Source: a virus (taxonomy: Duplodnaviria; Caudoviricetes). Taken from it: 40,419 nt of DNA. The stretch spans positions 1 through 40,419 of the IMG/VR virus record IMGVR_UViG_3300005077_000041. One strand, written 5' to 3'. Each line of letters begins with the position of its first letter. Positions within the stretch are counted from its first letter, which is position 1. The notes below the pieces were generated by a model that saw nothing but the letters and a program-made list of their open reading frames with translations, was not told where the DNA came from and made no database searches. The translations under genes and the position numbers were made by a program. Shown one piece after another: positions 3,450-23,533 of the stretch.

Positions 3450-4007
3450 TTAAGCAATCTTAATTAAAGTCCACAAATCATATTGGAAAGTAACAGAATA
3501 TTTAATTGACTCATTACCAGTATAATCTAATGTTACATCTGCTACAACAGCTGGCCATGCATTAAAAAAGCGAATTGCTTGTGGCAGCAACGATCCATCA
3601 TATTTATACATTTTAAGAAAAATATCAGTTGTCATTCCTTGTCGTTTTGCAGGAGCCTGTGAAGCACCTGCTGGGTCACCATCAGGATCAACTGTAAAAA
3701 TTCGTTCTTTCCAAGCATATAACCACTTTGTAACAAATTGATCTTCAGATTCTTCATATGTTGTTTCAAAAGTATGAGTAAAAGTTTCTTTACCTGGAAA
3801 CCATTGTTTTGTGCCCATGAAATACGATTCTATTGGTTCATTTGTACGTCCTGGAAGAACTGCAGTACGACTATGAATAATTAATGGTTCTTCATCATTA
3901 TAATCGCTTAAAATATTTCCAATATTTGGAATTGAAAGTTCAAACATCCAAGCACGTTGTATATCACCAATTGCTTTTGCTCGTCCCTCAATGGTAAAAT
4001 TTGCCAT
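3450..4007 (-). CDS. gp19: Major tail tube protein (T4 gp19-like)
   Basis: 185 aa with AVLPGRT, FPG.ETF, NAWP..V.DV.LDY and YSVTFQYD motifs. Follows the sheath gene, has AAGGAGG RBS, a late promoter and a terminator. Confidence 0.85.
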   Translation of the reverse strand: MANFTIEGRAKAIGDIQRAWMFELSIPNIGNILSDYNDEEPLIIHSRTAVLPGRTNEPIESYFMGTKQWFPGKETFTHTFETTYEESEDQFVTKWLYAWKERIFTVDPDGDPAGASQAPAKRQGMTTDIFLKMYKYDGSLLPQAIRFFNAWPAVVADVTLDYTGNESIKYSVTFQYDLWTLIKIA

Positions 4008-4028
4008 CTATATCCTCCTTTTAAGTAT

Positions 4029-4653
4029 TTAACAATATTTATATTTTATATGACCACAATCATACACTCTAAATATATTTCGTTGTTTTAAAATTTCTTG
4101 TTCTGACAATTTATTATCAGAACCCTGTTTGACCAGTCTACTTTTACGAAAAGCAAATCTATGCTTTCGTTTATTATTTATAATATAACTGTAGTTTGGT
4201 ATGGTGTATGAATCGAACACAAAACCTAACGTATCATACACAGTCTTGGAGATAGTGGTTGACCACGTTCTATCAGCGTAACTAATAATCGATTGTGGTT
4301 CATATTTTCTTAGAAAATATTTAAATAATTTGTCAGCACCACCAACAACCGTATAACCATTTTTATTACAAAATCTGATCAATTCCCATTGATAATAAGG
4401 ATTATTTCGGGGACGGCCAAACGTCATCACAGCAACTATTTCATTTTCGTTTTGAAGTATTATGACAACATTTTGGGCAGCCGGTTTGTTGTGCTAAGTG
4501 TGCTGTTGGAGTTTGAAGAAATTCACCATGTATTGGACAAATAATTTTAATTTTTGTTTTTGCATTAACATATTGAACTTTTGAATAATCATATTTATTA
4601 TGATGTATTTTTTGAGCTCTTTCAATAATATCTTTAGTAGTCAAGCGTCTCAT
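4029..4653 (-). pseudogene. Decayed Hef-like free-standing endonuclease: DUF723-type Zn domain (4441..4653) plus C-terminal domain (4029..4430) in another frame; nuclease core apparently deleted
   Basis: ORF1 has KYDYSKVQYVNAKTKIKIICPIHGEF...GCPKC. The ORF2 frame reads ENEIVAVMTFGRPR...ELIRFC...VVGGADKL...ISYADR.WS...RVYDCG and overlaps the end of ORF1. No catalytic domain lies between them. Confidence 0.65.
4036..4043 (-). promoter_or_regulatory. Late promoter box TATAAATA for gp19
   Basis: Exact match about 30 nt upstream of the gp19 ATG, embedded in the last codons of ORF 4029..4430. Confidence 0.65.
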
Positions 4654-4737
4654 AACAACCTCCTATAGTTGTTGTCCTAATATAATAATGGGGAAGGTGG
4701 TTAGGATTCCACTTTTCGGGAGCTGCCCTATCCCCAT
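4654..4737 (-). ncRNA. Structured 5' leader (three-way junction plus RBS hairpin) upstream of the endonuclease gene
   Basis: ATGGGGA/TCCCCAT closing stem, GGG-CAGCT-CCC hairpin, GAAAA linker, GTGG-AATCCTAA-CCAC hairpin, then AACAAC/GTTGTT stem around the SD. GC-rich relative to its AT-rich surroundings. Confidence 0.55.
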
Positions 4738-4749
4738 AATATTTTATAA

Positions 4750-6594
4750 TTAACGCACCCTAACTTCGTTGAAAGTAACACCAGTTTTCGTCACAATAGT
4801 TTGTACATCGATAAATTCAACTGTCTTAGGTGGCTGAACATACATGTCAACATTCAATATATTTTGATCAATTACAATTGGTGGGTTGTTTGATTCATCA
4901 CAAACAACCTCATAAGCAATTAAACCTTCTTGAGACTTAACTGTAGCAAAAAAACTATCAATATTACTCCAAACACGCAAACGTGTTTTATCAGTATTGT
5001 TGACATCAAGAACATATGGTTGAAGAAGTTTTTCAACAGTTTTTTCGAGGAAAAGGAGCAAACGACGTACATTGATGCGGTCAAGAGCTGAACTTTTCAT
5101 TTGTGAAGTCTTTTGACCCCACATTACATGACCGGTACCACGAATAATCCGTGATGTGTTAATATTTCGTTCGTATAACAATCCAATTTCAGAAAAAGTC
5201 CAAATTTTATTTTGATCAATTGATGGAATAATACCTCGACTCATACCAGCTGGCGCCATCCATACATTTGAAACATTATCTGTACGAGCCATAATGACAG
5301 CACCAAAAATACACTTTGGTAAAAATACTTTACGATCATTATACTTATCATAATATAAATCCCATCCAGCATATAGTGCATTATAAGAAGGTGCTACATA
5401 ACCATACTCTTCTTTTTGTGTACCATTAAGAATATCATCAACTGTAACGTCATAGCGACAACCAACTTGCGAAACCATAATGCAATCTTTACGAAAACCT
5501 ACAACATCTGAATTAACACCCTGTTTAACAACTGTCGCCCAGTCAGGAACGATGAGAATGCTCACATCGATATTTTCACGATCTTTAAAAAATGACCAAC
5601 CAGCAACTGAACCAAGACCTGTACCTTGAGTAACAACACCACCACTAAGTTCACCTACTACAAGTGAAACTGTACGTGTGATACCACCAGCACTAACAAC
5701 AGTATCTTGACCAGTGATAGTTTTATCAGAAGTGTTATTTACACGAACATAGATGTATTTTGAAACACCATTAATTTGCTCAATGATATTTGTTTGACGA
5801 CCATTATTGTCAATTTGGTTTGTTAATGTTCCAATATAAGATTCAAGTGGAACTTGATTTTCAAACCACCAACGGCGATCAGCTTCAGTTGAATAAGCAT
5901 GCCATGTTTCAGCTGTCTTTTTTTCAAAAACACTGACTTTAATAGCTTTTGGTGCAATTGCTGTTGAATCTGGATTTGTGTCAGATGAAACAAGTGAAAA
6001 ATCGTCATATGCAAATCGCCACTCACACGCTGAAGAATAACTTTCTACCATAATAGCAATATTATTTCCTTCAGTGCCTGGTCCAAGAGCAGCTACCATA
6101 AGCACACCTGGATTAGCAGTAATACTTGTAAATGATTTATTATCAATATCTGCAATCGATGTTGCAGTATCAAGTTGTGTTGGAGTTATATCAGCAGTAA
6201 TTGTTTCTGCAGTTACTGATCCACCAGATGTTTGAAATACAACATTAGCAAAAGAGTCTCCGTCATTTGCTACACGCAAAACATAAAGATCATCAGACTC
6301 TTTAAGAAACTCAAGTGAAGCATAAGCACCATAACCATATTCTGGAATAGTTTCTTGTTTTGCAGCATCAGTACTAATACCAGCAATTGTTGTTTCATCA
6401 GTACCGCTTGTAAAAACTGGTTCACCAAATGTTTCAATAAAACTTTTATCGTCAGTCACTCTTTTTAGTCTATTAATAGGACCTTTTGGAGCTCGAATAA
6501 CAATTCCGCCCGTTGATGTACCAGCTGGAACAGCAATTTCTGAGATATCAATTTCTCGCATGTATACACCTGGTGTTTTGTATACTTTTGGCAT
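4750..6594 (-). CDS. gp18: Contractile tail sheath protein (T4 gp18-like)
   Basis: TPGVYMREID N-terminus, KGPIN, FG.P, WMAPAGMSRG, WGQKT, SALDRINVRRLLLFLEK, VVCDESNN. Confidence 0.97.
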   Translation of the reverse strand: MPKVYKTPGVYMREIDISEIAVPAGTSTGGIVIRAPKGPINRLKRVTDDKSFIETFGEPVFTSGTDETTIAGISTDAAKQETIPEYGYGAYASLEFLKESDDLYVLRVANDGDSFANVVFQTSGGSVTAETITADITPTQLDTATSIADIDNKSFTSITANPGVLMVAALGPGTEGNNIAIMVESYSSACEWRFAYDDFSLVSSDTNPDSTAIAPKAIKVSVFEKKTAETWHAYSTEADRRWWFENQVPLESYIGTLTNQIDNNGRQTNIIEQINGVSKYIYVRVNNTSDKTITGQDTVVSAGGITRTVSLVVGELSGGVVTQGTGLGSVAGWSFFKDRENIDVSILIVPDWATVVKQGVNSDVVGFRKDCIMVSQVGCRYDVTVDDILNGTQKEEYGYVAPSYNALYAGWDLYYDKYNDRKVFLPKCIFGAVIMARTDNVSNVWMAPAGMSRGIIPSIDQNKIWTFSEIGLLYERNINTSRIIRGTGHVMWGQKTSQMKSSALDRINVRRLLLFLEKTVEKLLQPYVLDVNNTDKTRLRVWSNIDSFFATVKSQEGLIAYEVVCDESNNPPIVIDQNILNVDMYVQPPKTVEFIDVQTIVTKTGVTFNEVRVR

Positions 6595-7273: not shown

Positions 7274-8401
7274 TTAATATCCTTCGCCTCTCCAAAACAA
7301 TGGATCATTGTTTTCTTCTTCTTCATTTACAATTGCTGCAGGCAATGATTCCATTTCTTCATTAGTAAGTTTAAATTTGTCTTCAATTTGTAATTTTTTC
7401 ACTGTTCGCTTTCCTGTATAATTTGAAGTTCTTGGATACCAAAGACCCCAATTTAATGATGTTACAGTATCATCATGACCATCTTTTGTCTCACAAGCAA
7501 ACACATTAAGTTTATGCTCAATAAAACGACTAAGCTCATATACGGTAGTTTGATCGTGAATTTTACACCAACCTTCTTCTATATATCTTTTAGTATTTAG
7601 GTTTGCTGCCAGCTTTGATTTTTTATTAGCATTAACACCCAATCCCTTTTTTTCACAATTAACTACACGATCACATTCATATTCATACCAAATTGTATTA
7701 AGTAATCCTTCACCACAACCATTATTTTCAATCATCATTTCTGCTTTATTAAAAAAATCAGATACAGAGATACAAACTTGTGCAAAAACATGTGTATCAA
7801 CTTCGTTATTTCTATAAATAGCTACTTGCTCAATATTTTTTTCACTGAAAATACGAAGTATTTGTATAACTGAGTAATCTCGACGAGTGCCTTTTCCAGG
7901 ATCAATACCAAGTATATATTCTGCACCAGCTTCTGGAGGAAAAAATATTTGCAATGAACCATTCCATTTTAACATTTTTGGAGACATTACATCAATACGT
8001 TCAAGAACATCAGGATCAATAAGTGTATTAGAACTACCAAGAAAACGGCAATTGTGGTTCACAATTTCATTTGCTATATATGTATGTTTCAAATTGTGAA
8101 TCTCAAGTATATCATATACCGTGGATTTGGGCTTTAAACCAATACCCAAAACTTTTTGTAGACCACTTTTTGTTTCAATTTCCATACCTTCAACTAATTC
8201 TTTAGCAAAAATAGTTTCATCTTCAAAAACAAACTCATGTTCAGGAGAGACAAAAATATCATCGTTCTCCAAAATAATGTGTAAAATAGGTTGTGGATTG
8301 TCAATCTTTGCTACACCATCAAAGTCAACAAAACCTTGAGGAGTTTCAATCTTGAAACGACCGTTGTTTTTAACTACTGAAAATTCATCACTTGCTATCA
8401 T
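7274..8401 (-). CDS. gp17: Large terminase C-terminal fragment: split-intein IntC plus RNase H-like nuclease domain
   Basis: After ...IANEIVNHN the sequence reads CRFLGSSNTLI, then YILGIDPGKG..RDYS, IENNG.G and GHDDTVTSL, which are gp17 nuclease motifs. Confidence 0.93.
   Translation of the reverse strand: MIASDEFSVVKNNGRFKIETPQGFVDFDGVAKIDNPQPILHIILENDDIFVSPEHEFVFEDETIFAKELVEGMEIETKSGLQKVLGIGLKPKSTVYDILEIHNLKHTYIANEIVNHNCRFLGSSNTLIDPDVLERIDVMSPKMLKWNGSLQIFFPPEAGAEYILGIDPGKGTRRDYSVIQILRIFSEKNIEQVAIYRNNEVDTHVFAQVCISVSDFFNKAEMMIENNGCGEGLLNTIWYEYECDRVVNCEKKGLGVNANKKSKLAANLNTKRYIEEGWCKIHDQTTVYELSRFIEHKLNVFACETKDGHDDTVTSLNWGLWYPRTSNYTGKRTVKKLQIEDKFKLTNEEMESLPAAIVNEEEENNDPLFWRGEGY
8051..8401 (-). 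mobile_element. IntC half (117 aa) of an atypically split intein
   Basis: KIETPQGFVDFDGV, block B VSPEHEF, block F VYDILE, block G NEIVNHN followed by Cys+1. Confidence 0.92.
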
Positions 8402-9366
8402 TATAACTCCAAAATTTCTCTAAACTCTTGTTCAGTCATTCGACTCTTTTTACTATTAGTTCGACGGCTACACACACAAAGATTGTCAATGTGTGCAATT
8501 TCTTCAGGTGGAATGTTGTTTTGAAATCCGTAAAAAACACTAATTTTGTGATCGATGGTTGGTTCAAGAGCCTTATTATGACACTTTATCATTTTTTCTC
8601 CGGTATAATAATCATACTCATTTTCTTCAATCAACTTCTTTGTGTTGTATCGGTTTCTTGTTATCCAATCCACTCGCACTCTATATTTCATATATCTTGT
8701 ACGGATTCTACCAACTAACCATTTACCACTCTGTTCATGTTTTTCTTTGATTTTTTCAACAACAAAAGGTATTTGAAAAACATTATCAACACCATACTTT
8801 TCTTGCAAACTTTTTACTCGATTCACATTTACCTGTTCTACATTTTCTTCAGTCCAAAAAGCACTACGTTTTTGATTGATTTCTTCTTTATTTTCTTGTA
8901 AAGTTTTTTGCCGAGATTTTACACATGTTTGCATTTGAAAATTGTGCTCAACACCATAACGCTCAATCATTGTCTGTTTTTTCTTATGAGCCCATTCCTC
9001 TGTTTGTGTATATCCATTAGCACCATAACGCTCTTGACACGTTTGATTAAACTTCTTTTTTATTTGTGTATAGTCGCGGGAAGCACACGATTCTTTAAGT
9101 TTCGTTACTTTCTCATCCGAAGCATTCCAACATTTTTGACTACAGTAAGGTTTATATCCAAATTTAATGATGTTGCGTTCTGGCTTTGAAGGACCATGAC
9201 AATGTTTACAAAAACCTTCACCTTCTTGTTTCATGTATATGTCATAATATTCTTTAGTGGTCATTCCTTTGTGGCGTTTTTTAAGGTGCCATTGAAATTG
9301 GTTACTTTTATATGTGGTTTGTTCTCCGCAAATTAAACATTTGATGGGTTCTTCAACATGATTCAT
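8401..9366 (-). CDS. Free-standing HNH homing endonuclease between the two terminase halves
   Basis: N-terminal C2H2 finger (CLIC...HLKKRH), CKHC...YCSQKC, three K..T..E[RK]YG repeats, C-terminal TIDHKIS...DNLCVCSRRTNSKK. ATGA and TAATG overlaps with both neighbours. Confidence 0.85.
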   Translation of the reverse strand: MNHVEEPIKCLICGEQTTYKSNQFQWHLKKRHKGMTTKEYYDIYMKQEGEGFCKHCHGPSKPERNIIKFGYKPYCSQKCWNASDEKVTKLKESCASRDYTQIKKKFNQTCQERYGANGYTQTEEWAHKKKQTMIERYGVEHNFQMQTCVKSRQKTLQENKEEINQKRSAFWTEENVEQVNVNRVKSLQEKYGVDNVFQIPFVVEKIKEKHEQSGKWLVGRIRTRYMKYRVRVDWITRNRYNTKKLIEENEYDYYTGEKMIKCHNKALEPTIDHKISVFYGFQNNIPPEEIAHIDNLCVCSRRTNSKKSRMTEQEFREILEL

Positions 9367-11621
9367 TTTTGTAGTTCCTTATAGAGTTGTTCGATGGTGA
9401 TGTTACGTTTTTCACCAGTTCTTTGATCTTCTATAAGTATATAGCTTTTATCCCCTTGTGCACATCCGTACTCTTGGTTCCATTCTATAATTCCCCCTTG
9501 TAAATTAGCTATTGTTTCTTGCTTGAAATTTTCATCTCTTCCTGGCACCTCCCACCAATTAATCTTGATAGGATAATAACCACTATCTCCTCGTGCGGCC
9601 TTTTGCCACATGCGATAGAAGTGATTCATACCATTTGGCGTCTGGGTCCCTATAACTTGATTATATAATACAGAATGACACCACTCATCTCCATCAATAT
9701 CCGGCAATGATAAATCAAAAACTTGGTTGTGAGAATTTTCAATCCTTGTTATAACACTCCACAATAAATCCTCACGGCACATTTCCAACACTTCTTGAAC
9801 TATAGGATGATCAATAACACTTAATTGTTCTCTAAACTTCTCAATAGTTTGTCTATTAAAATGATTGCTTTCATGGTAGTTGCCCTTAAAAATACCAGTT
9901 TGTTGCACTTGTTTATAATGATTTATGCTAACTTCTCGTAAACTCCTCAATTTCTTTTTAGAGAAGGGAATTATATCATTCTTATCACGTGAATACTTTT
10001 GGTTGACAAACTGTTCATTTAATTGTTTTCGTTTGAATCTAAATCCAACTTCCCTAAAAAACTTTTTAGCTTGTTGACCTGTTATTTGTAATCTATAGCT
10101 GTGTGAATGTACTTTGACTAACTTTGTCGGTTTCACATGAATATAATTGAAGGCACCATGTATTCCAAGATTCAATAAAAGAACTTTTATTTGTTTCAGC
10201 AAAGTATTACTTGATAAGTTTATGCCAACACGTCCCTCATACTTGCAACTATAGCCATCTCCATCAAATATTCCTTGTAATAACGCAATTATATTTCTCC
10301 GAGATAGCTGAAGAAGTCTATCTGGAATACATTTTTCTGGTGCCTTTTTTTGAAGATCAAATCCTACAAATTGTAACAATTGAATAAGATTTTTAGATGA
10401 TATTATATGTCTCAATCCATCCTTACAGTTATAAGATAAATTGAGCTTCTGTAGAAGTTCACAAACATCAGCAGTATCACCACAAGTAATATAAACTTGT
10501 CCTCCAATCAAATTTGATTGTTTGTTATAAATTGGTCTTGCACATCCTTCAGCAATAAATAATCCAAAAAAATAAGCCCAATCTTCAGTTATTCTTTCAA
10601 CATTTAAATTACGTGTGCTTTTTTTATTATTTGAGATAAAATTAATTTGATCATCATTACCCCATACATTTGTACCCGTTCGAATTGCAAAAAAATCACC
10701 TTTTTTTATATCTTTTGTTTCCCTAAGTTTATTTACCCCATCACGACAACAATACCATTTATGAATTAATGTGCTTTCAACATCCATAATAGTTGTAAAT
10801 ATACGACGAGTGTGTTGTTCACCATTATTAACAACTATATTTCCAACATGCGGATGTTTATAACCATAAACATTATATGGAATATTTTCATAAATGCCAG
10901 GTTGATCTGGTATGAATGAACCAATTGTTTGAGGTCCATTTTCAGTTAACAACAATGTATCTTTTGGCACACATGAAACTATAACAACCTTCGATTTCTT
11001 ACCACTTGAAATAGTAGGGTAAACAGAGCTAAAAAAATCAGAAGCAATATTATCAGGTACAAAAGCAAATTCATCCAACATCAATAATGAAATAGAATAT
11101 GAACGAATAGCATTTGAAGAGGTACTACTTGCAACAACACACATGCCATTTTCAAAGTTTACTTCACCTTTATTCCATCCACCTTCAACAACACCTTGTT
11201 GTAACCACAATGGTAATTGCATATAAGCTTCTTTAAATTCTTTCATTAATTTATGTGCTGTTTTTTCTTTGTTTGCAAGAATAGCGGCCGTTTTATCTTT
11301 ATTAAATAAAACAAAGTGTAGTAAAAGTATACGACACACAACTGATTTACCAATTTGTCGAGAGCTTAAAACAATACAATGTTGTTTATTTGGAATAGCA
11401 TCATTAGGTTTAGTGGGTGGATTAGCCATCGCTGCCAACATTTTCTTTTGATAGTCTCGTAAAGTAACAATGTGTTTTCCTTTATCAATTTCAACAATAA
11501 AGAAATATTTTTCTGCAAAATAGAAAATATCTTCAGCACAGTGAAGCCATTCTTTTTTCATTTCATCGGTATATTCAATTGTTTCTGATGCTGATCGAAG
11601 TAATGGATTATTTTGATACAT
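9363..11621 (-). CDS. gp17: Large terminase N-terminal fragment (ATPase) containing a cis intein and ending in split-intein IntN
   Basis: LRDYQKKM, Walker A SRQIGKS, Walker B LMLDEFAFV, YPTISSGK, motif III S|TPNG.NHFY, WWEVPGRD, QEYG|C. Confidence 0.95.
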   Translation of the reverse strand: MYQNNPLLRSASETIEYTDEMKKEWLHCAEDIFYFAEKYFFIVEIDKGKHIVTLRDYQKKMLAAMANPPTKPNDAIPNKQHCIVLSSRQIGKSVVCRILLLHFVLFNKDKTAAILANKEKTAHKLMKEFKEAYMQLPLWLQQGVVEGGWNKGEVNFENGMCVVASSTSSNAIRSYSISLLMLDEFAFVPDNIASDFFSSVYPTISSGKKSKVVIVSCVPKDTLLLTENGPQTIGSFIPDQPGIYENIPYNVYGYKHPHVGNIVVNNGEQHTRRIFTTIMDVESTLIHKWYCCRDGVNKLRETKDIKKGDFFAIRTGTNVWGNDDQINFISNNKKSTRNLNVERITEDWAYFFGLFIAEGCARPIYNKQSNLIGGQVYITCGDTADVCELLQKLNLSYNCKDGLRHIISSKNLIQLLQFVGFDLQKKAPEKCIPDRLLQLSRRNIIALLQGIFDGDGYSCKYEGRVGINLSSNTLLKQIKVLLLNLGIHGAFNYIHVKPTKLVKVHSHSYRLQITGQQAKKFFREVGFRFKRKQLNEQFVNQKYSRDKNDIIPFSKKKLRSLREVSINHYKQVQQTGIFKGNYHESNHFNRQTIEKFREQLSVIDHPIVQEVLEMCREDLLWSVITRIENSHNQVFDLSLPDIDGDEWCHSVLYNQVIGTQTPNGMNHFYRMWQKAARGDSGYYPIKINWWEVPGRDENFKQETIANLQGGIIEWNQEYGCAQGDKSYILIEDQRTGEKRNITIEQLYKELQK
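9366..9464 (-). mobile_element. IntN half (33 aa) of the atypically split intein
   Basis: CAQGDKSYILIEDQRTGEKRNITIEQLYKELQK*: Cys1, block A and an I.IE.LY motif, followed by a stop. Confidence 0.9.
9642..10973 (-). mobile_element. 444-aa cis intein with LAGLIDADG homing endonuclease and C-terminal Gln
   Basis: CVPKDTLLLTENG start, STLIHKW block B, YFFGLFIAEG and LLQGIFDGDG LAGLIDADG helices, VFDLSL block F, ends VIGTQ|T. Removal restores VVIVSTPNG. Confidence 0.93.
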
Positions 11622-15177: not shown

Positions 15178-15206
15178 AAAAAAGGGGTAGTTAACTACCC
15201 CTTTTT
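15178..15206 (-). terminator. Intrinsic terminator after the major capsid gene
   Basis: AAAAAGGGGTAG-TTAA-CTACCCCTTTTTT perfect inverted repeat about 25 nt after the gp23 stop. Confidence 0.88.
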
Positions 15207-15229
15207 AATATTTGTAACTAAATTACAGT

Positions 15230-21342: not shown

Positions 21343-22743
21343 TTATAGACCAAACATAGTACTTGCTACTAATTGTAATAATTCAACACGTGTATCTATA
21401 TTCATCACGCCCTTCTTAAATTCAAGTAATTTAAAACCGCCAATACGAAGAGCTCGAATAATATCATCCTGTTTTACATTTGAACTATCCATAAGAATTT
21501 TATCATGTTCTTTTTGTAATTTTTCAAAAGCTGTATTGATACTTTGTATAATTTTTTGTTTATTTATTTTTTCGTTGACATTGACTCCATTTTTGTATTC
21601 TTTTTTATTTTTTAACATAAGAAATTTAACTGGATCACAATCAATGTCCGGACTTATCCATGTTCGCTTCATTATTTGTGTGATATTTGGTATTTTTAAT
21701 TGATTGGCAAATACTTCAACCATTACATCATTGATAATTTTATCCAAACCATCACGAAGAGGACCCCACAATCTTTGGTTGAGCTCAGCAAAATCACCGG
21801 TGATTTTTATAAGTGAATCTTTATACTTAGTTACAAGTCCTTCAATTTTTGGGTGAGATGAACCAGTTTTACGTTCACCAGAAAATAATTGTGATGATAG
21901 GTTGATAAGAATTTCAGCACCAACTTTTGCAGCTAAAGATTTCATTGTGTTATGAAGTTCATCATCATTCATATCTGCTCTATTCTTAAGCCGTTTAAAT
22001 TCTGGAAAATGCTTAAATTTTAAAGCAACAGCCTCTAAATCACTTTTAATACGTGATTGTGGTATATCAATCTGTCCATAAAATATCCAATTTGAATTTG
22101 CTTTTTGTACATTTTTTTTCACATTATTTATTGGACCAATATAGCTAACTACTTCTGAATTAACTGTAATTTTTCCAATTTTATTAGCAATATCTTTAAG
22201 TGTTTTTGCTTTAAAATCGAGAGGTGGGTATCCTTGATCTTCTGTTCCATGAAGTGAATGAAACACAATAAAATTATCTGTGTTTGAATATTGAATAAGA
22301 TTTGGAATTTCACCATATATAATTTCAAGATTAATAAATGCACGTGGTGAACCATCAGGAAAAATCAAACCAAATTCTACACGTTCTGATGGTTTGAGAG
22401 ATTCTAAACCTTTTCGTAAAGCTTCAAAACCGGCACGAAATGCATCTCCGCCCGGGTGAGTAATTGGAAATTTCTTAGATATGTCAGTATCTGGAGTTTC
22501 AGTGCGATTGCGAGCGAATACAAGTTTGCCTGCTTTGTTGAAACCAACGAATAAATTTACTCCATCGACTTTTTCTGTTGTGTCTAATTTACCAGTTAAA
22601 AGTCTGTCAAAAAAATCAATAAAGTCTTCTGGTGTCAGTACATCGTAGGGATGATTCATGTGTCCGCCGAGACCACCCTCTAACAAGTTGATTTTTGCAG
22701 AATTAGAAAAATGGCTTTCGAAAAATTTTCTAAATTTTCCCAT
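21343..22743 (-). CDS. Ligase/nucleotidyltransferase-fold protein (DUF6267-like), putative head-internal
   Basis: LLE|GG..GHM.HPYD, motif I TEKVDG, FARN, INLEII, IEGLV (motif IV-like), IKITGDF (motif V-like). Confidence 0.55.
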   Translation of the reverse strand: MGKFRKFFESHFSNSAKINLLEGGLGGHMNHPYDVLTPEDFIDFFDRLLTGKLDTTEKVDGVNLFVGFNKAGKLVFARNRTETPDTDISKKFPITHPGGDAFRAGFEALRKGLESLKPSERVEFGLIFPDGSPRAFINLEIIYGEIPNLIQYSNTDNFIVFHSLHGTEDQGYPPLDFKAKTLKDIANKIGKITVNSEVVSYIGPINNVKKNVQKANSNWIFYGQIDIPQSRIKSDLEAVALKFKHFPEFKRLKNRADMNDDELHNTMKSLAAKVGAEILINLSSQLFSGERKTGSSHPKIEGLVTKYKDSLIKITGDFAELNQRLWGPLRDGLDKIINDVMVEVFANQLKIPNITQIMKRTWISPDIDCDPVKFLMLKNKKEYKNGVNVNEKINKQKIIQSINTAFEKLQKEHDKILMDSSNVKQDDIIRALRIGGFKLLEFKKGVMNIDTRVELLQLVASTMFGL

Positions 22744-23446
22744 GAAATAACTCCTGAATCAGTTTACCGAGATTACGTTTTTGTTTATAATTAAATCTAA
22801 CTAATTTCATTTTCTTTTCACCACACCATTCTGTTTTCCGTTGATCGTTAATTTGTCTTTGTTTCAGCGCTGGCAGTCCACCAAACCTCTTTACCGCTCT
22901 GAAATGTTGTGTACCGTCATATTCAATACACATTTGTTGTTCTGGAAAATAAAAATCAAACCTTAAAGGATGATTAGTTTTTCCTATCAACTCATCAAAA
23001 GTTTTTTCACGAATAAAATTGATAGATCTTTCTTTTAATTCTTTTGCTATTATTTGCTCACCTTGAGAAGCAGTACAAAACTTACAACCACAACCATTTT
23101 CCTTTAACTTCGCCCAAGTCTTCCAATTTTCTCTACCACAACTACACATATAGTGTAATTTAGTGGCATTATTTTTATATTCCGAACTCAACAAAATACA
23201 ATCTTGTTCTTTTAAATATTGTCGAACAACATCAATGCCTATATGTAATTTATTTTGATTACACTTATGACAATGACTTGCACCTCTATGTCTTAATACA
23301 TCCCAAAATCGGGTAGTTGTTTTATGACCTTGAGTACATTCAATTTTAATTATCTGATGAGCGTTCTTATATTCGCTACTCAATAAAGTGCATCCATCTT
23401 CCTTCAAAATATTGCACACTTCATCAATTGTATATGGTTTTCTCAC
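22730..23446 (-). CDS. Free-standing endonuclease: tandem Zn-finger repeats plus DUF559/Vsr-like PD-(D/E)xK domain
   Basis: Two LLSSEYKN...C..GH/CSCG...CxxC repeats, SQGEQII, LRFDFY, IEYDGTQHF, ND.RK..WC. GTG start with AAGGAGG. Confidence 0.85.
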   Translation of the reverse strand: MRKPYTIDEVCNILKEDGCTLLSSEYKNAHQIIKIECTQGHKTTTRFWDVLRHRGASHCHKCNQNKLHIGIDVVRQYLKEQDCILLSSEYKNNATKLHYMCSCGRENWKTWAKLKENGCGCKFCTASQGEQIIAKELKERSINFIREKTFDELIGKTNHPLRFDFYFPEQQMCIEYDGTQHFRAVKRFGGLPALKQRQINDQRKTEWCGEKKMKLVRFNYKQKRNLGKLIQELFHGKI

Positions 23447-23533
23447 ACTAACCTCCTTTACAGGTTTTAATTTTTGAGAAGTAATCCTTACTTGTAAAGG
23501 TTTCAGGAAACGGTGGCCGCCGCTGTCCTTCTC
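23447..23533 (-). ncRNA. Structured 5' leader (three-way junction plus RBS hairpin) upstream of the endonuclease gene
   Basis: GAGAAG/CTTCTC closing stem, AGCGG-CGGCCA-CCGTT hairpin, TGAAA linker, CCTT-TACAAGT-AAGG hairpin, then AACCT/AGGTT stem over the SD. Confidence 0.55.

Follow-up and report, generated by a model that had tools for sequence, protein, structure and literature searches.

The RNA leader that stands before a homing-endonuclease-like gene in the phage studied here belongs to a catalogued family, int-alpA (Rfam RF02996), which lacks a described function in the searchable papers, and it very probably controls the initiation of translation. Comparison with its relatives shows a unit composed of a three-way junction, a loop (L3) with two downstream targets, a hairpin that carries the Shine-Dalgarno (SD) sequence, an overlap of the second target with that SD, and a second loop (L2) that is complementary to itself. 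The same comparison places such leaders inside operons and directly ahead of a start codon. These features allow us to propose, tentatively and with less than even confidence, that the leader is a concentration-sensing brake on translation, which would be on in the monomer and off in the dimer.

The window, which is the whole stretch of DNA analysed, corresponds to an entire linear virus record of 40,419 bases with an estimated completeness of 18%. T4-like head and tail genes lie on its minus strand, and the coordinates of the leader and its neighbours are collected in Table 1. The stop codon of the sheath gene is 12 nt ahead of helix P1. The nuclease gene behind the leader is internally deleted: its middle is missing and its halves are out of frame. 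(The label Hef-like in Table 1 is presumably the name for the phrog_559 endonuclease profile.) In a relative whose sheath protein is 85% identical (L002), the tube gene directly follows the sheath gene, and neither leader nor endonuclease is present between them, which suggests that the two are gained or lost as one cassette. Since the gene that it would regulate is a deleted remnant, the leader may no longer matter in the window. The broken endonuclease gene and the self-complementary P2 loop are both points absent from the original prediction for this locus.

Some other features of the genome were observed in passing. The large terminase gene (window 7274-11621, minus strand) occupies two ORFs, one with Terminase_6N and a LAGLIDADG domain and the other with Terminase_6C, and a 321-residue endonuclease-like ORF lies between them. 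By eye, the ends resemble a split intein, as in the "fractured genes" arrangement in the accessible portion of PMC2677866. The split layout is also found in relative L003; L002 has a single terminase ORF. The labels "portal" and "prohead protease" were rejected for genes of another relative (L004), as they have no Pfam support. A hairpin at window 15178-15207, with an A run before it and a T run after it, is a likely two-way terminator behind the major capsid-like gene.

Table 1. Features of the two leaders and of the neighbouring genes (window coordinates)
Feature	Position	Strand	Match or basis
Tail sheath gene (gp18-like), upstream of first leader	4750..6594	-	Phage_sheath_1C
Three-way junction P1-UA-P2-GAAAA-P3-CU-P1 (int-alpA core)	4688..4737	-	Rfam match, P1 and P3 covariation
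P1, 7 bp	4737-4731 with 4694-4688	-	
P2, around loop CAGCU	4728-4726 with 4720-4718	-	
Loop L2, CAGCU; palindrome AGCU half a base off the hairpin axis; predicted self-kissing	4721..4725	-	
P3, around 8-nt loop AAUCCUAA	4712-4709 with 4700-4697	-	
Loop L3, AAUCCUAA, complementary to sites 1 and 2	4701..4708	-	sequence; swap controls
Site 1 (decoy), TTAGGA, 6 bp with L3, 7 nt past P1; predicted cis pseudoknot stacked on P3	4675..4680	-	
Hairpin P4, AACAAC/GTTGTT, 6 bp, 8-nt loop with site 2 and most of the SD	4654..4673	-	sequence; arm pairing in relatives
Site 2, TAGGA (4665-4661), 5 bp with L3, overlapping SD AGGAGG (4664-4659)	4659..4665	-	
Start codon ATG	4653	-	
70-residue ORF behind leader, N-terminal Zn-finger repeat of Hef-like homing endonuclease, ends at a stop	4441..4653	-	DUF723; phrog_559 positions 121-182; phrog_681
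C-terminal piece, same endonuclease family, other frame	4029..4463	-	phrog_559 positions 459-599; phrog_3339
Tail tube gene (gp19-like), downstream	3450..4007	-	
Second leader, family B, without Rfam match	23447..23533	-	
Family B leader, P1	23533-23528 with 23481-23476	-	
Family B leader, P2 loop CGGCCA	23519-23514	-	
Family B leader, predicted P3	23508-23505 with 23488-23485	-	
Family B leader, anti-SD stretch, complementary to 23462-23455 in SD hairpin	23500-23493	-	
238-residue Zn-finger endonuclease-like ORF behind second leader	22730..23446	-	phrog_559 positions 193-404; phrog_9084
Family B members named: L361, L363-L365, L371, L374, L377, L380-L382, L389, L390, L392, L393, L396, L407-L409			

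The element at 4675-4738 (minus strand) matches the int-alpA model over positions 1-71 of 71, with 47.4 bits against a cut-off of 35.8 (E 6.8e-7), and in the alignment the consensus junction strands UAG, CGAAAAG and CU are all present. Three further matches in the window are below their Rfam cut-offs and fall on the terminator-like hairpin near 15200 (weak sraA, STnc40). The original prediction had presented the fold as a possibly undescribed RNA, a novelty that a hit to a known Rfam family was to remove; the match above the cut-off does so, and the fold was already catalogued. The Rfam consensus also has a loop and a tail that are complementary in the manner of L3 and site 1, and ACGU occurs in its P2 loop. 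The model ends with site 1 and covers neither the SD hairpin nor site 2.

The int-alpA motif is reportedly one of the 224 motifs in the 2017 survey by Weinberg et al. The word "alpA" is absent from the main text of PMC5737381, whose supplement lay outside the search, and in the literature so covered no paper was found on the function of int-alpA, the SD hairpin, the second target or the palindromic loop. PMC12370729, in its accessible text, names int-alpA as a genomic annotation without follow-up; in the available part of PMC13612085 the letters "int-alpA" denote a gene order.

The sequence motifs listed in the original prediction are all found at their positions on the minus strand. However, a lone sequence is insufficient as proof of the fold, which rests on comparison, that is, on the Rfam match and the covariation of P1. 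Single-sequence folding is not significant (z -0.91 for the 56-nt stretch; other z values -0.54 and +0.31), and the minimum-energy fold differs from the junction, with -22.1 kcal/mol against -20.3 kcal/mol for junction plus SD hairpin. A scan limited to sigma-70-type promoters gave 10 sites against a chance level of 7.0 +/- 2.3, i.e. none above chance.

Relatives were collected with sequence-structure patterns. A tight pattern returned two copies in unrelated phages, each with its own L3 and two matching downstream sites, and a looser core pattern returned at least 120 viral and at least 120 genome loci. The 244 pattern matches listed, including the window and the first two copies, were passed through an independent P1 test, which retained 209 and dropped 35. 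A few of the 35 look real, and a few chance matches remain among those retained; L279 was left out as a chance match. Among the 209 retained matches listed, 192 elements and 145 L3 loops are distinct. With a second pattern, 70 loci were found, which hold 59 distinct elements and 44 distinct L3 loops. One strict pattern alone corresponds to about 430 viral and 360 genome stretches, both figures being estimates and the latter including chance matches; at least nine phylum-level groups are represented in the record titles of the genome matches that were retained. In the swap and shuffle controls kinship was handled by taking one element per distinct loop, without a tree.

The covariation check on relatives that the original prediction called for supports the fold. 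In 75 aligned relatives, 276 cells of P1 are changed on both sides, compared with 98.7 on shuffling (0/500). Most of P2 and P3 is fixed by the search patterns, so invariant pairs in these helices carry no evidential weight; P3 changes on both sides in copies found by the model R1 (100 records and genomes; 41 matches aligned). Conservation of the junction bases is strong in these model-found copies as well, and of 20 relatives tested, 18 score at or above the Rfam cut-off.

That a loop of the leader is complementary to the translation-initiation region, as had been noticed in the window, proved to be a property of the family far above chance and covarying across relatives. Among the matches listed, at least one downstream L3 site of at least five Watson-Crick pairs is present for 131 of the 145 distinct loops (37.0 after swapping, maximum 50), and two separate sites of this kind for 99/145 (swap mean 9.4, maximum 17 in 200 swaps). 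Swapping loops among elements preserves their anti-SD bias. The second-pattern set agrees, with two L3 sites in 26/44 against 2.0 swapped. In the matches listed, site 1 lies about 15 nt past the junction (median 16) and site 2 about 30 nt past it, and the same L3 bases are common to both sites in 132/142, which makes the two pairings mutually exclusive. The stronger partner of L3 is site 1 in 88 of the matches listed and site 2 in 36, with 18 ties. An alternative count of 140 against 29 was set aside, because it is biased by requiring five pairs of site 1 and just four of site 2. In the window the two sites are about equal, with -5.0 and -4.0, or -5.3 and -5.6 when the flanks are included.

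The helix with site 1 extends to the last or next-to-last base of L3 in 183/193 cases. Its distance from the junction does not increase with the length of P2 (rho 0.07, with L329 and L352 left out) and is 15 nt in seven members with a long P2, in agreement with a cis pseudoknot. The sequence around site 2 is also conserved in layout. Among the matches listed, the arms of the SD hairpin, one between the sites and one after site 2, pair in 90/136 (swap 40.8, maximum 53), and a start codon is located 0-17 nt past site 2 in 120/136, mostly at 5-10 nt (background 167/706). Again among the matches listed, site 2 overlaps an SD-like stretch in 107/120 and covers at least three SD bases in 67 of the 95 elements with a clear SD. 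From the counts of targets, arm pairing, start codons and SD overlap, the conserved unit is the junction together with a decoy and an SD in a hairpin loop.

Position directly past a stop codon, and entry with a mobile cassette that is absent from L002, could also be expected of a terminator of the sheath gene, of a self-cleaving ribozyme, or of a DNA-level element such as a mobility end or an operator. We consider these highly improbable. A scan for a GC-rich hairpin followed by a U run found no terminator-like site in 3900-5200, TTTT follows P1 in just 19/136 relatives (matches listed), and the intrinsic terminator class was rejected on these counts; the possibility that the element behaves only as the gp18 terminator, raised with the original prediction, finds no such site at the locus. 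No ribozyme family matches the window in the Rfam scan at E up to 1. The strict one-strand orientation, the narrow spacing of the start codon and the G-U pairs in the stems argue against a DNA element and point to an RNA that acts on translation.

Such an RNA could act in trans. If the leader were released as a small RNA, or had a stable 3' end, through cleavage of the linker or trimming to P1, its free L3 could repress other messages through L2-L2 and L3-site 2 contacts; the P1 C4 and P4 CI RNAs are models for this kind of small-RNA repression. The linker is poor in G (52 G in 957 nt), Rfam gives the type of int-alpA as "Gene; sRNA", and release would account for a molecule with a free L3. 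On the other hand, the scarcity of U-runs after P1 in the matches listed and the lack of a terminator-like site at the window locus make this explanation improbable.

The second loop shows a pattern of a different kind. A palindrome of at least 4 nt is found in 45/68 distinct L2 loops among the matches listed (shuffled 18.6, maximum 34 in 2000 shuffles), and in the curated sets, which leave out loops longer than 10 nt, in 44/66 (shuffled 17.1, maximum 30 in 5000 shuffles). The L3 loops are not enriched in palindromes, with 17/145 against 44. As the axis of the palindrome is off the hairpin axis in 38/44, mostly by half a base, it is not an extension of the stem. In the 9-nt class of L2 the palindrome is at the identical place in 24/25 loops and is of ten kinds, all filling the same four positions, and in the 7-nt class the central two bases are GC or AU, at the same place, in 26/27. 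Self-complementarity is thus kept through sequence change, as expected of a kissing-loop homodimer. The remaining 22/66 loops have no 4-nt palindrome, and many of them are GACG or similar. GACG, which is the commonest L2 loop in the second-pattern set, is the retroviral two-base-pair kissing loop in the available part of PMC7357161. A cis partner for L2 was not found in the flanks, where complementarity occurs downstream in 65/192 (expected 72.8) and upstream in 78 (73.5) among the matches listed. The comparison indicates selection on L2 for self-pairing, and contact between the RNAs of two leader copies is probably part of the function.

Copies within one genome are also of interest. Paralogues in G069 and G057 keep L3 and have changed palindromes; most pairs of co-resident copies differ in the palindrome and some are identical (G080, G094), but random pairs differ too. 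The genome bin G069, from Brocadiia, has eight int-alpA-type copies (L328-L334), several of them with a common L3 and different palindromes, and two tandem copies at the end of one of its contigs (L329) are without the normal layout of site 1, hairpin and site 2. At L169 (1190-1659) two copies 411 nt apart have a similar L3 and different 6-nt palindromes. An alphaproteobacterial repeat (L126, L145, L150, L199, L200, L218) has a CCGAAAAG-YGG core and a palindromic third loop without such a P1.

The genes behind these leaders are varied. From 136 elements, the window excluded, 118 downstream ORFs with a start codon and at least 40 codons were scanned, many of them incomplete at the end of the locus. 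Among the matches listed, 21/118 are endonuclease-like, 23 are otherwise annotated, 6 belong to unknown families and 68 have no match. The other annotations comprise 11 replication initiators or primosomal proteins, 5 integrases or recombinases, 4 DNA methyltransferases, 2 tail assembly chaperones and 1 glycosyltransferase. This range goes far beyond integrase and AlpA genes, and the neighbourhood implied by the family name is not that of the window, where the leader precedes an endonuclease remnant; gene context gave the family its name but is no part of what defines the model. The idea that the fold travels with these endonucleases is therefore too narrow, since just 21/118 scanned genes among the matches listed are endonuclease-like and none of four relatives of the C-terminal piece (46-49% identical) carries an int-alpA leader.

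It could be argued that the switch works in cis, through a protein or through a ribosome on the upstream gene, and that L2 binds a protein or folds otherwise, with no RNA dimer. An upstream ORF on the same strand ends within 300 nt in 123/136 elements among the matches listed, many at 11-36 nt from the core, the sheath gene being one such neighbour, and the strong conservation of the junction bases would be in keeping with a bound protein. However, a protein site would keep its sequence, yet ten palindromes fill the same four positions of L2; the downstream proteins are unrelated; and the distance to the upstream stop varies from -3 to 292 nt. We find this reading quite unlikely.

The second leader of the window (Table 1) had been described as having the same layout as the first. 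It is a real conserved fold, but it represents a different family with the same logic, here called family B. The second site gives no match to int-alpA at E up to 10, nor to model R1, and the model built for family B (R2) does not match the first element in the window. No Rfam family matches the family B element in 10 loci, and int-alpA is found in 0/10 relatives. A strict pattern for the second site had 0 matches, and a search with its ORF found one partial relative without a leader. That locus (L246, 770-1250) has lost the second leader together with the N-terminal portion of its endonuclease, and the C-terminal third is fused behind the upstream gene.

Family B was reached through L358 alone, which is one of the four relatives of the C-terminal piece and where an ORF is 56% identical over 62 residues to the 70-residue ORF of the window. 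At L358 (861-950), beside a tail tube-like gene, a family B leader replaces int-alpA before this close relative of the endonuclease N-terminus. From the leader of this relative, the int-alpA and family B leaders look interchangeable.

Pattern scans for family B gave 22 viral and 14 metagenome loci; in 11 of the 22 viral ones the match is due to chance, the remainder of the fold being absent. Counting that of the window, there are 16 distinct elements. P1 and P2 covary: two-sided changes occur in 47 cells, compared with 12.4 (0/500; 15 aligned). The stretch after GAAA pairs with the SD region over at least seven pairs in 14/16 elements (swap 2.8, maximum 8 in 1000 swaps), the third loop of the family pairing 7-9 bases there. 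The P2 loops are palindromic in 9 of 12 distinct cases (expected 3.6, p 0.0002), and the remaining three, GACG, GGCA and UCGCA, all occur in int-alpA too. RNAalifold predicts a third helix, UCCU/AGGA, whose loop encloses GAAA and the anti-SD stretch, and at the second site GAAA is likelier to be inside this third loop than in the junction. Model R2 found three more copies in 28 records; in these the third helix is changed on both sides, and GAAA and a decoy are both missing. Downstream of family B, 8/14 scanned proteins are endonuclease-like and two are initiators, and one model-found copy precedes a TnpB-like gene.

The brake that we propose would operate as follows. In a single transcript L3 would be held on the decoy in cis, the SD would be open and the message would be translated. 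When transcripts are abundant, L2-L2 kissing between two molecules would lead each L3 to site 2 of its partner, hiding both SDs and reducing 30S binding, so that the outcome would be negative feedback on the concentration of the message. We infer that the pairing of L3 with site 1 is intramolecular because it is made first, is usually the stronger, is stacked on P3 and has a constant distance despite changes in P2 length. The kiss itself is weak, only 2-4 bp and about -3 kcal/mol for the window loop, and would need extra intermolecular contacts. The tether of site 2, about 13 nt plus the hairpin, might reach the L3 of the partner, and a stable dimer would have to use site 2, since the tether of site 1 is probably too short.

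The weakness of the kiss counts against the brake, as does the fact that site 2 is also reachable within one molecule. Moreover, a dimer through site 2 forfeits two usually stronger site-1 helices, so that the opposite polarity fits at least as well energetically. Under that polarity the monomer would be shut, with L3 on site 2 in cis, and L2-L2 dimers would shift L3 to site 1, or off the SD. The leader would then be a threshold switch, with translation reserved for abundant transcripts and leaky ones kept silent. A site-1 dimer would be more stable, site 1 being the stronger partner in 88 against 36 of the matches listed, and the model-found family B members, with one SD-directed site, suggest an "off" default; in the accessible part of PMC4825925, IsrK offers a precedent of a same-locus RNA that turns the long form on in trans. 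Nevertheless, pairing across the L2-L2 interface needs a site 1 distance that grows with the length of P2, which it does not, and site 1 emerges earlier in transcription and stacks on P3 as a cis pseudoknot would. A switch opened by dimers is unlikely. Returning to the brake, its "on by default" state needs a geometric argument, as a decoy is missing from the three family B members found by model R2, and it is favoured by family B as a whole, where palindromic loops of the same set occur together with an anti-SD loop on a differently built scaffold.

It is useful to compare these leaders with known systems. C4 of P1/P7 and CI of P4 are phage RNAs on the transcript of their own locus that pair near a translation start. 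A remote loop beside or over the SD is known from the repZ pseudoknot of IncI-type plasmids and from the loop-loop contact of the cobalamin riboswitch; the former activates and is blocked by an antisense RNA, and the latter needs a ligand. To our knowledge, a variable palindromic loop and a pair of targets are absent from both. In the Rfam scan the window has no match to repZ or the cobalamin riboswitch, and none to the IsrK, C4 and CI families at E up to 1. IsrK of Gifsy-1 is likewise a phage RNA on an own-locus transcript that pairs near a translation start, but it arises by termination and activates (PMC4825925, accessible part), while no terminator is found at the leader.

The homing endonuclease genes I-TevI, I-TevII, I-TevIII, segB and mobE of T-even phages have single hairpins that sequester the RBS and are bypassed by a late promoter (PMC2988022, available text). 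The leader resembles them as an RNA structure at the RBS of an endonuclease gene that is free-standing and part of a long transcript. It differs in that its SD is mostly in the P4 loop, not buried in one stem, and is the target of a distant loop that has another target as well; the T-even hairpin class was rejected for this reason. Palindromic kissing loops are found in MoMuLV and MoMuSV (GACG loops) and in oskar, where they serve packaging or transport in eukaryotes (PMC7357161, accessible portion). The leaders share with these the self-complementary loops of 2-6 bases, with GACG common in L2, but the loop of the leaders is linked to a bacterial SD, and the dimer is a predicted one.

A brake of the proposed type would suit cassettes of endonucleases, initiators, integrases and methyltransferases, which enter transcription units of unknown strength, in this case a late tail operon. 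The comparison supplies natural compensatory changes for an orphan motif, and two separately built scaffolds with the same loop repertoire are present in this one phage. We give an even chance to the broader proposal that int-alpA and family B are protein-free sensors of mRNA concentration, in which kissing-loop homodimers would count copies and open or close the SD, and the palindrome would be a private address for each gene. If the dimer model is true, in either polarity, it would represent control of a bacterial gene by self-association of its mRNA, which was not found described in the literature searched. It would also provide a compact, orthogonal feedback part made of RNA only, and would explain how the dose of selfish nucleases, initiators and integrases is set in the absence of a promoter or repressor of their own.
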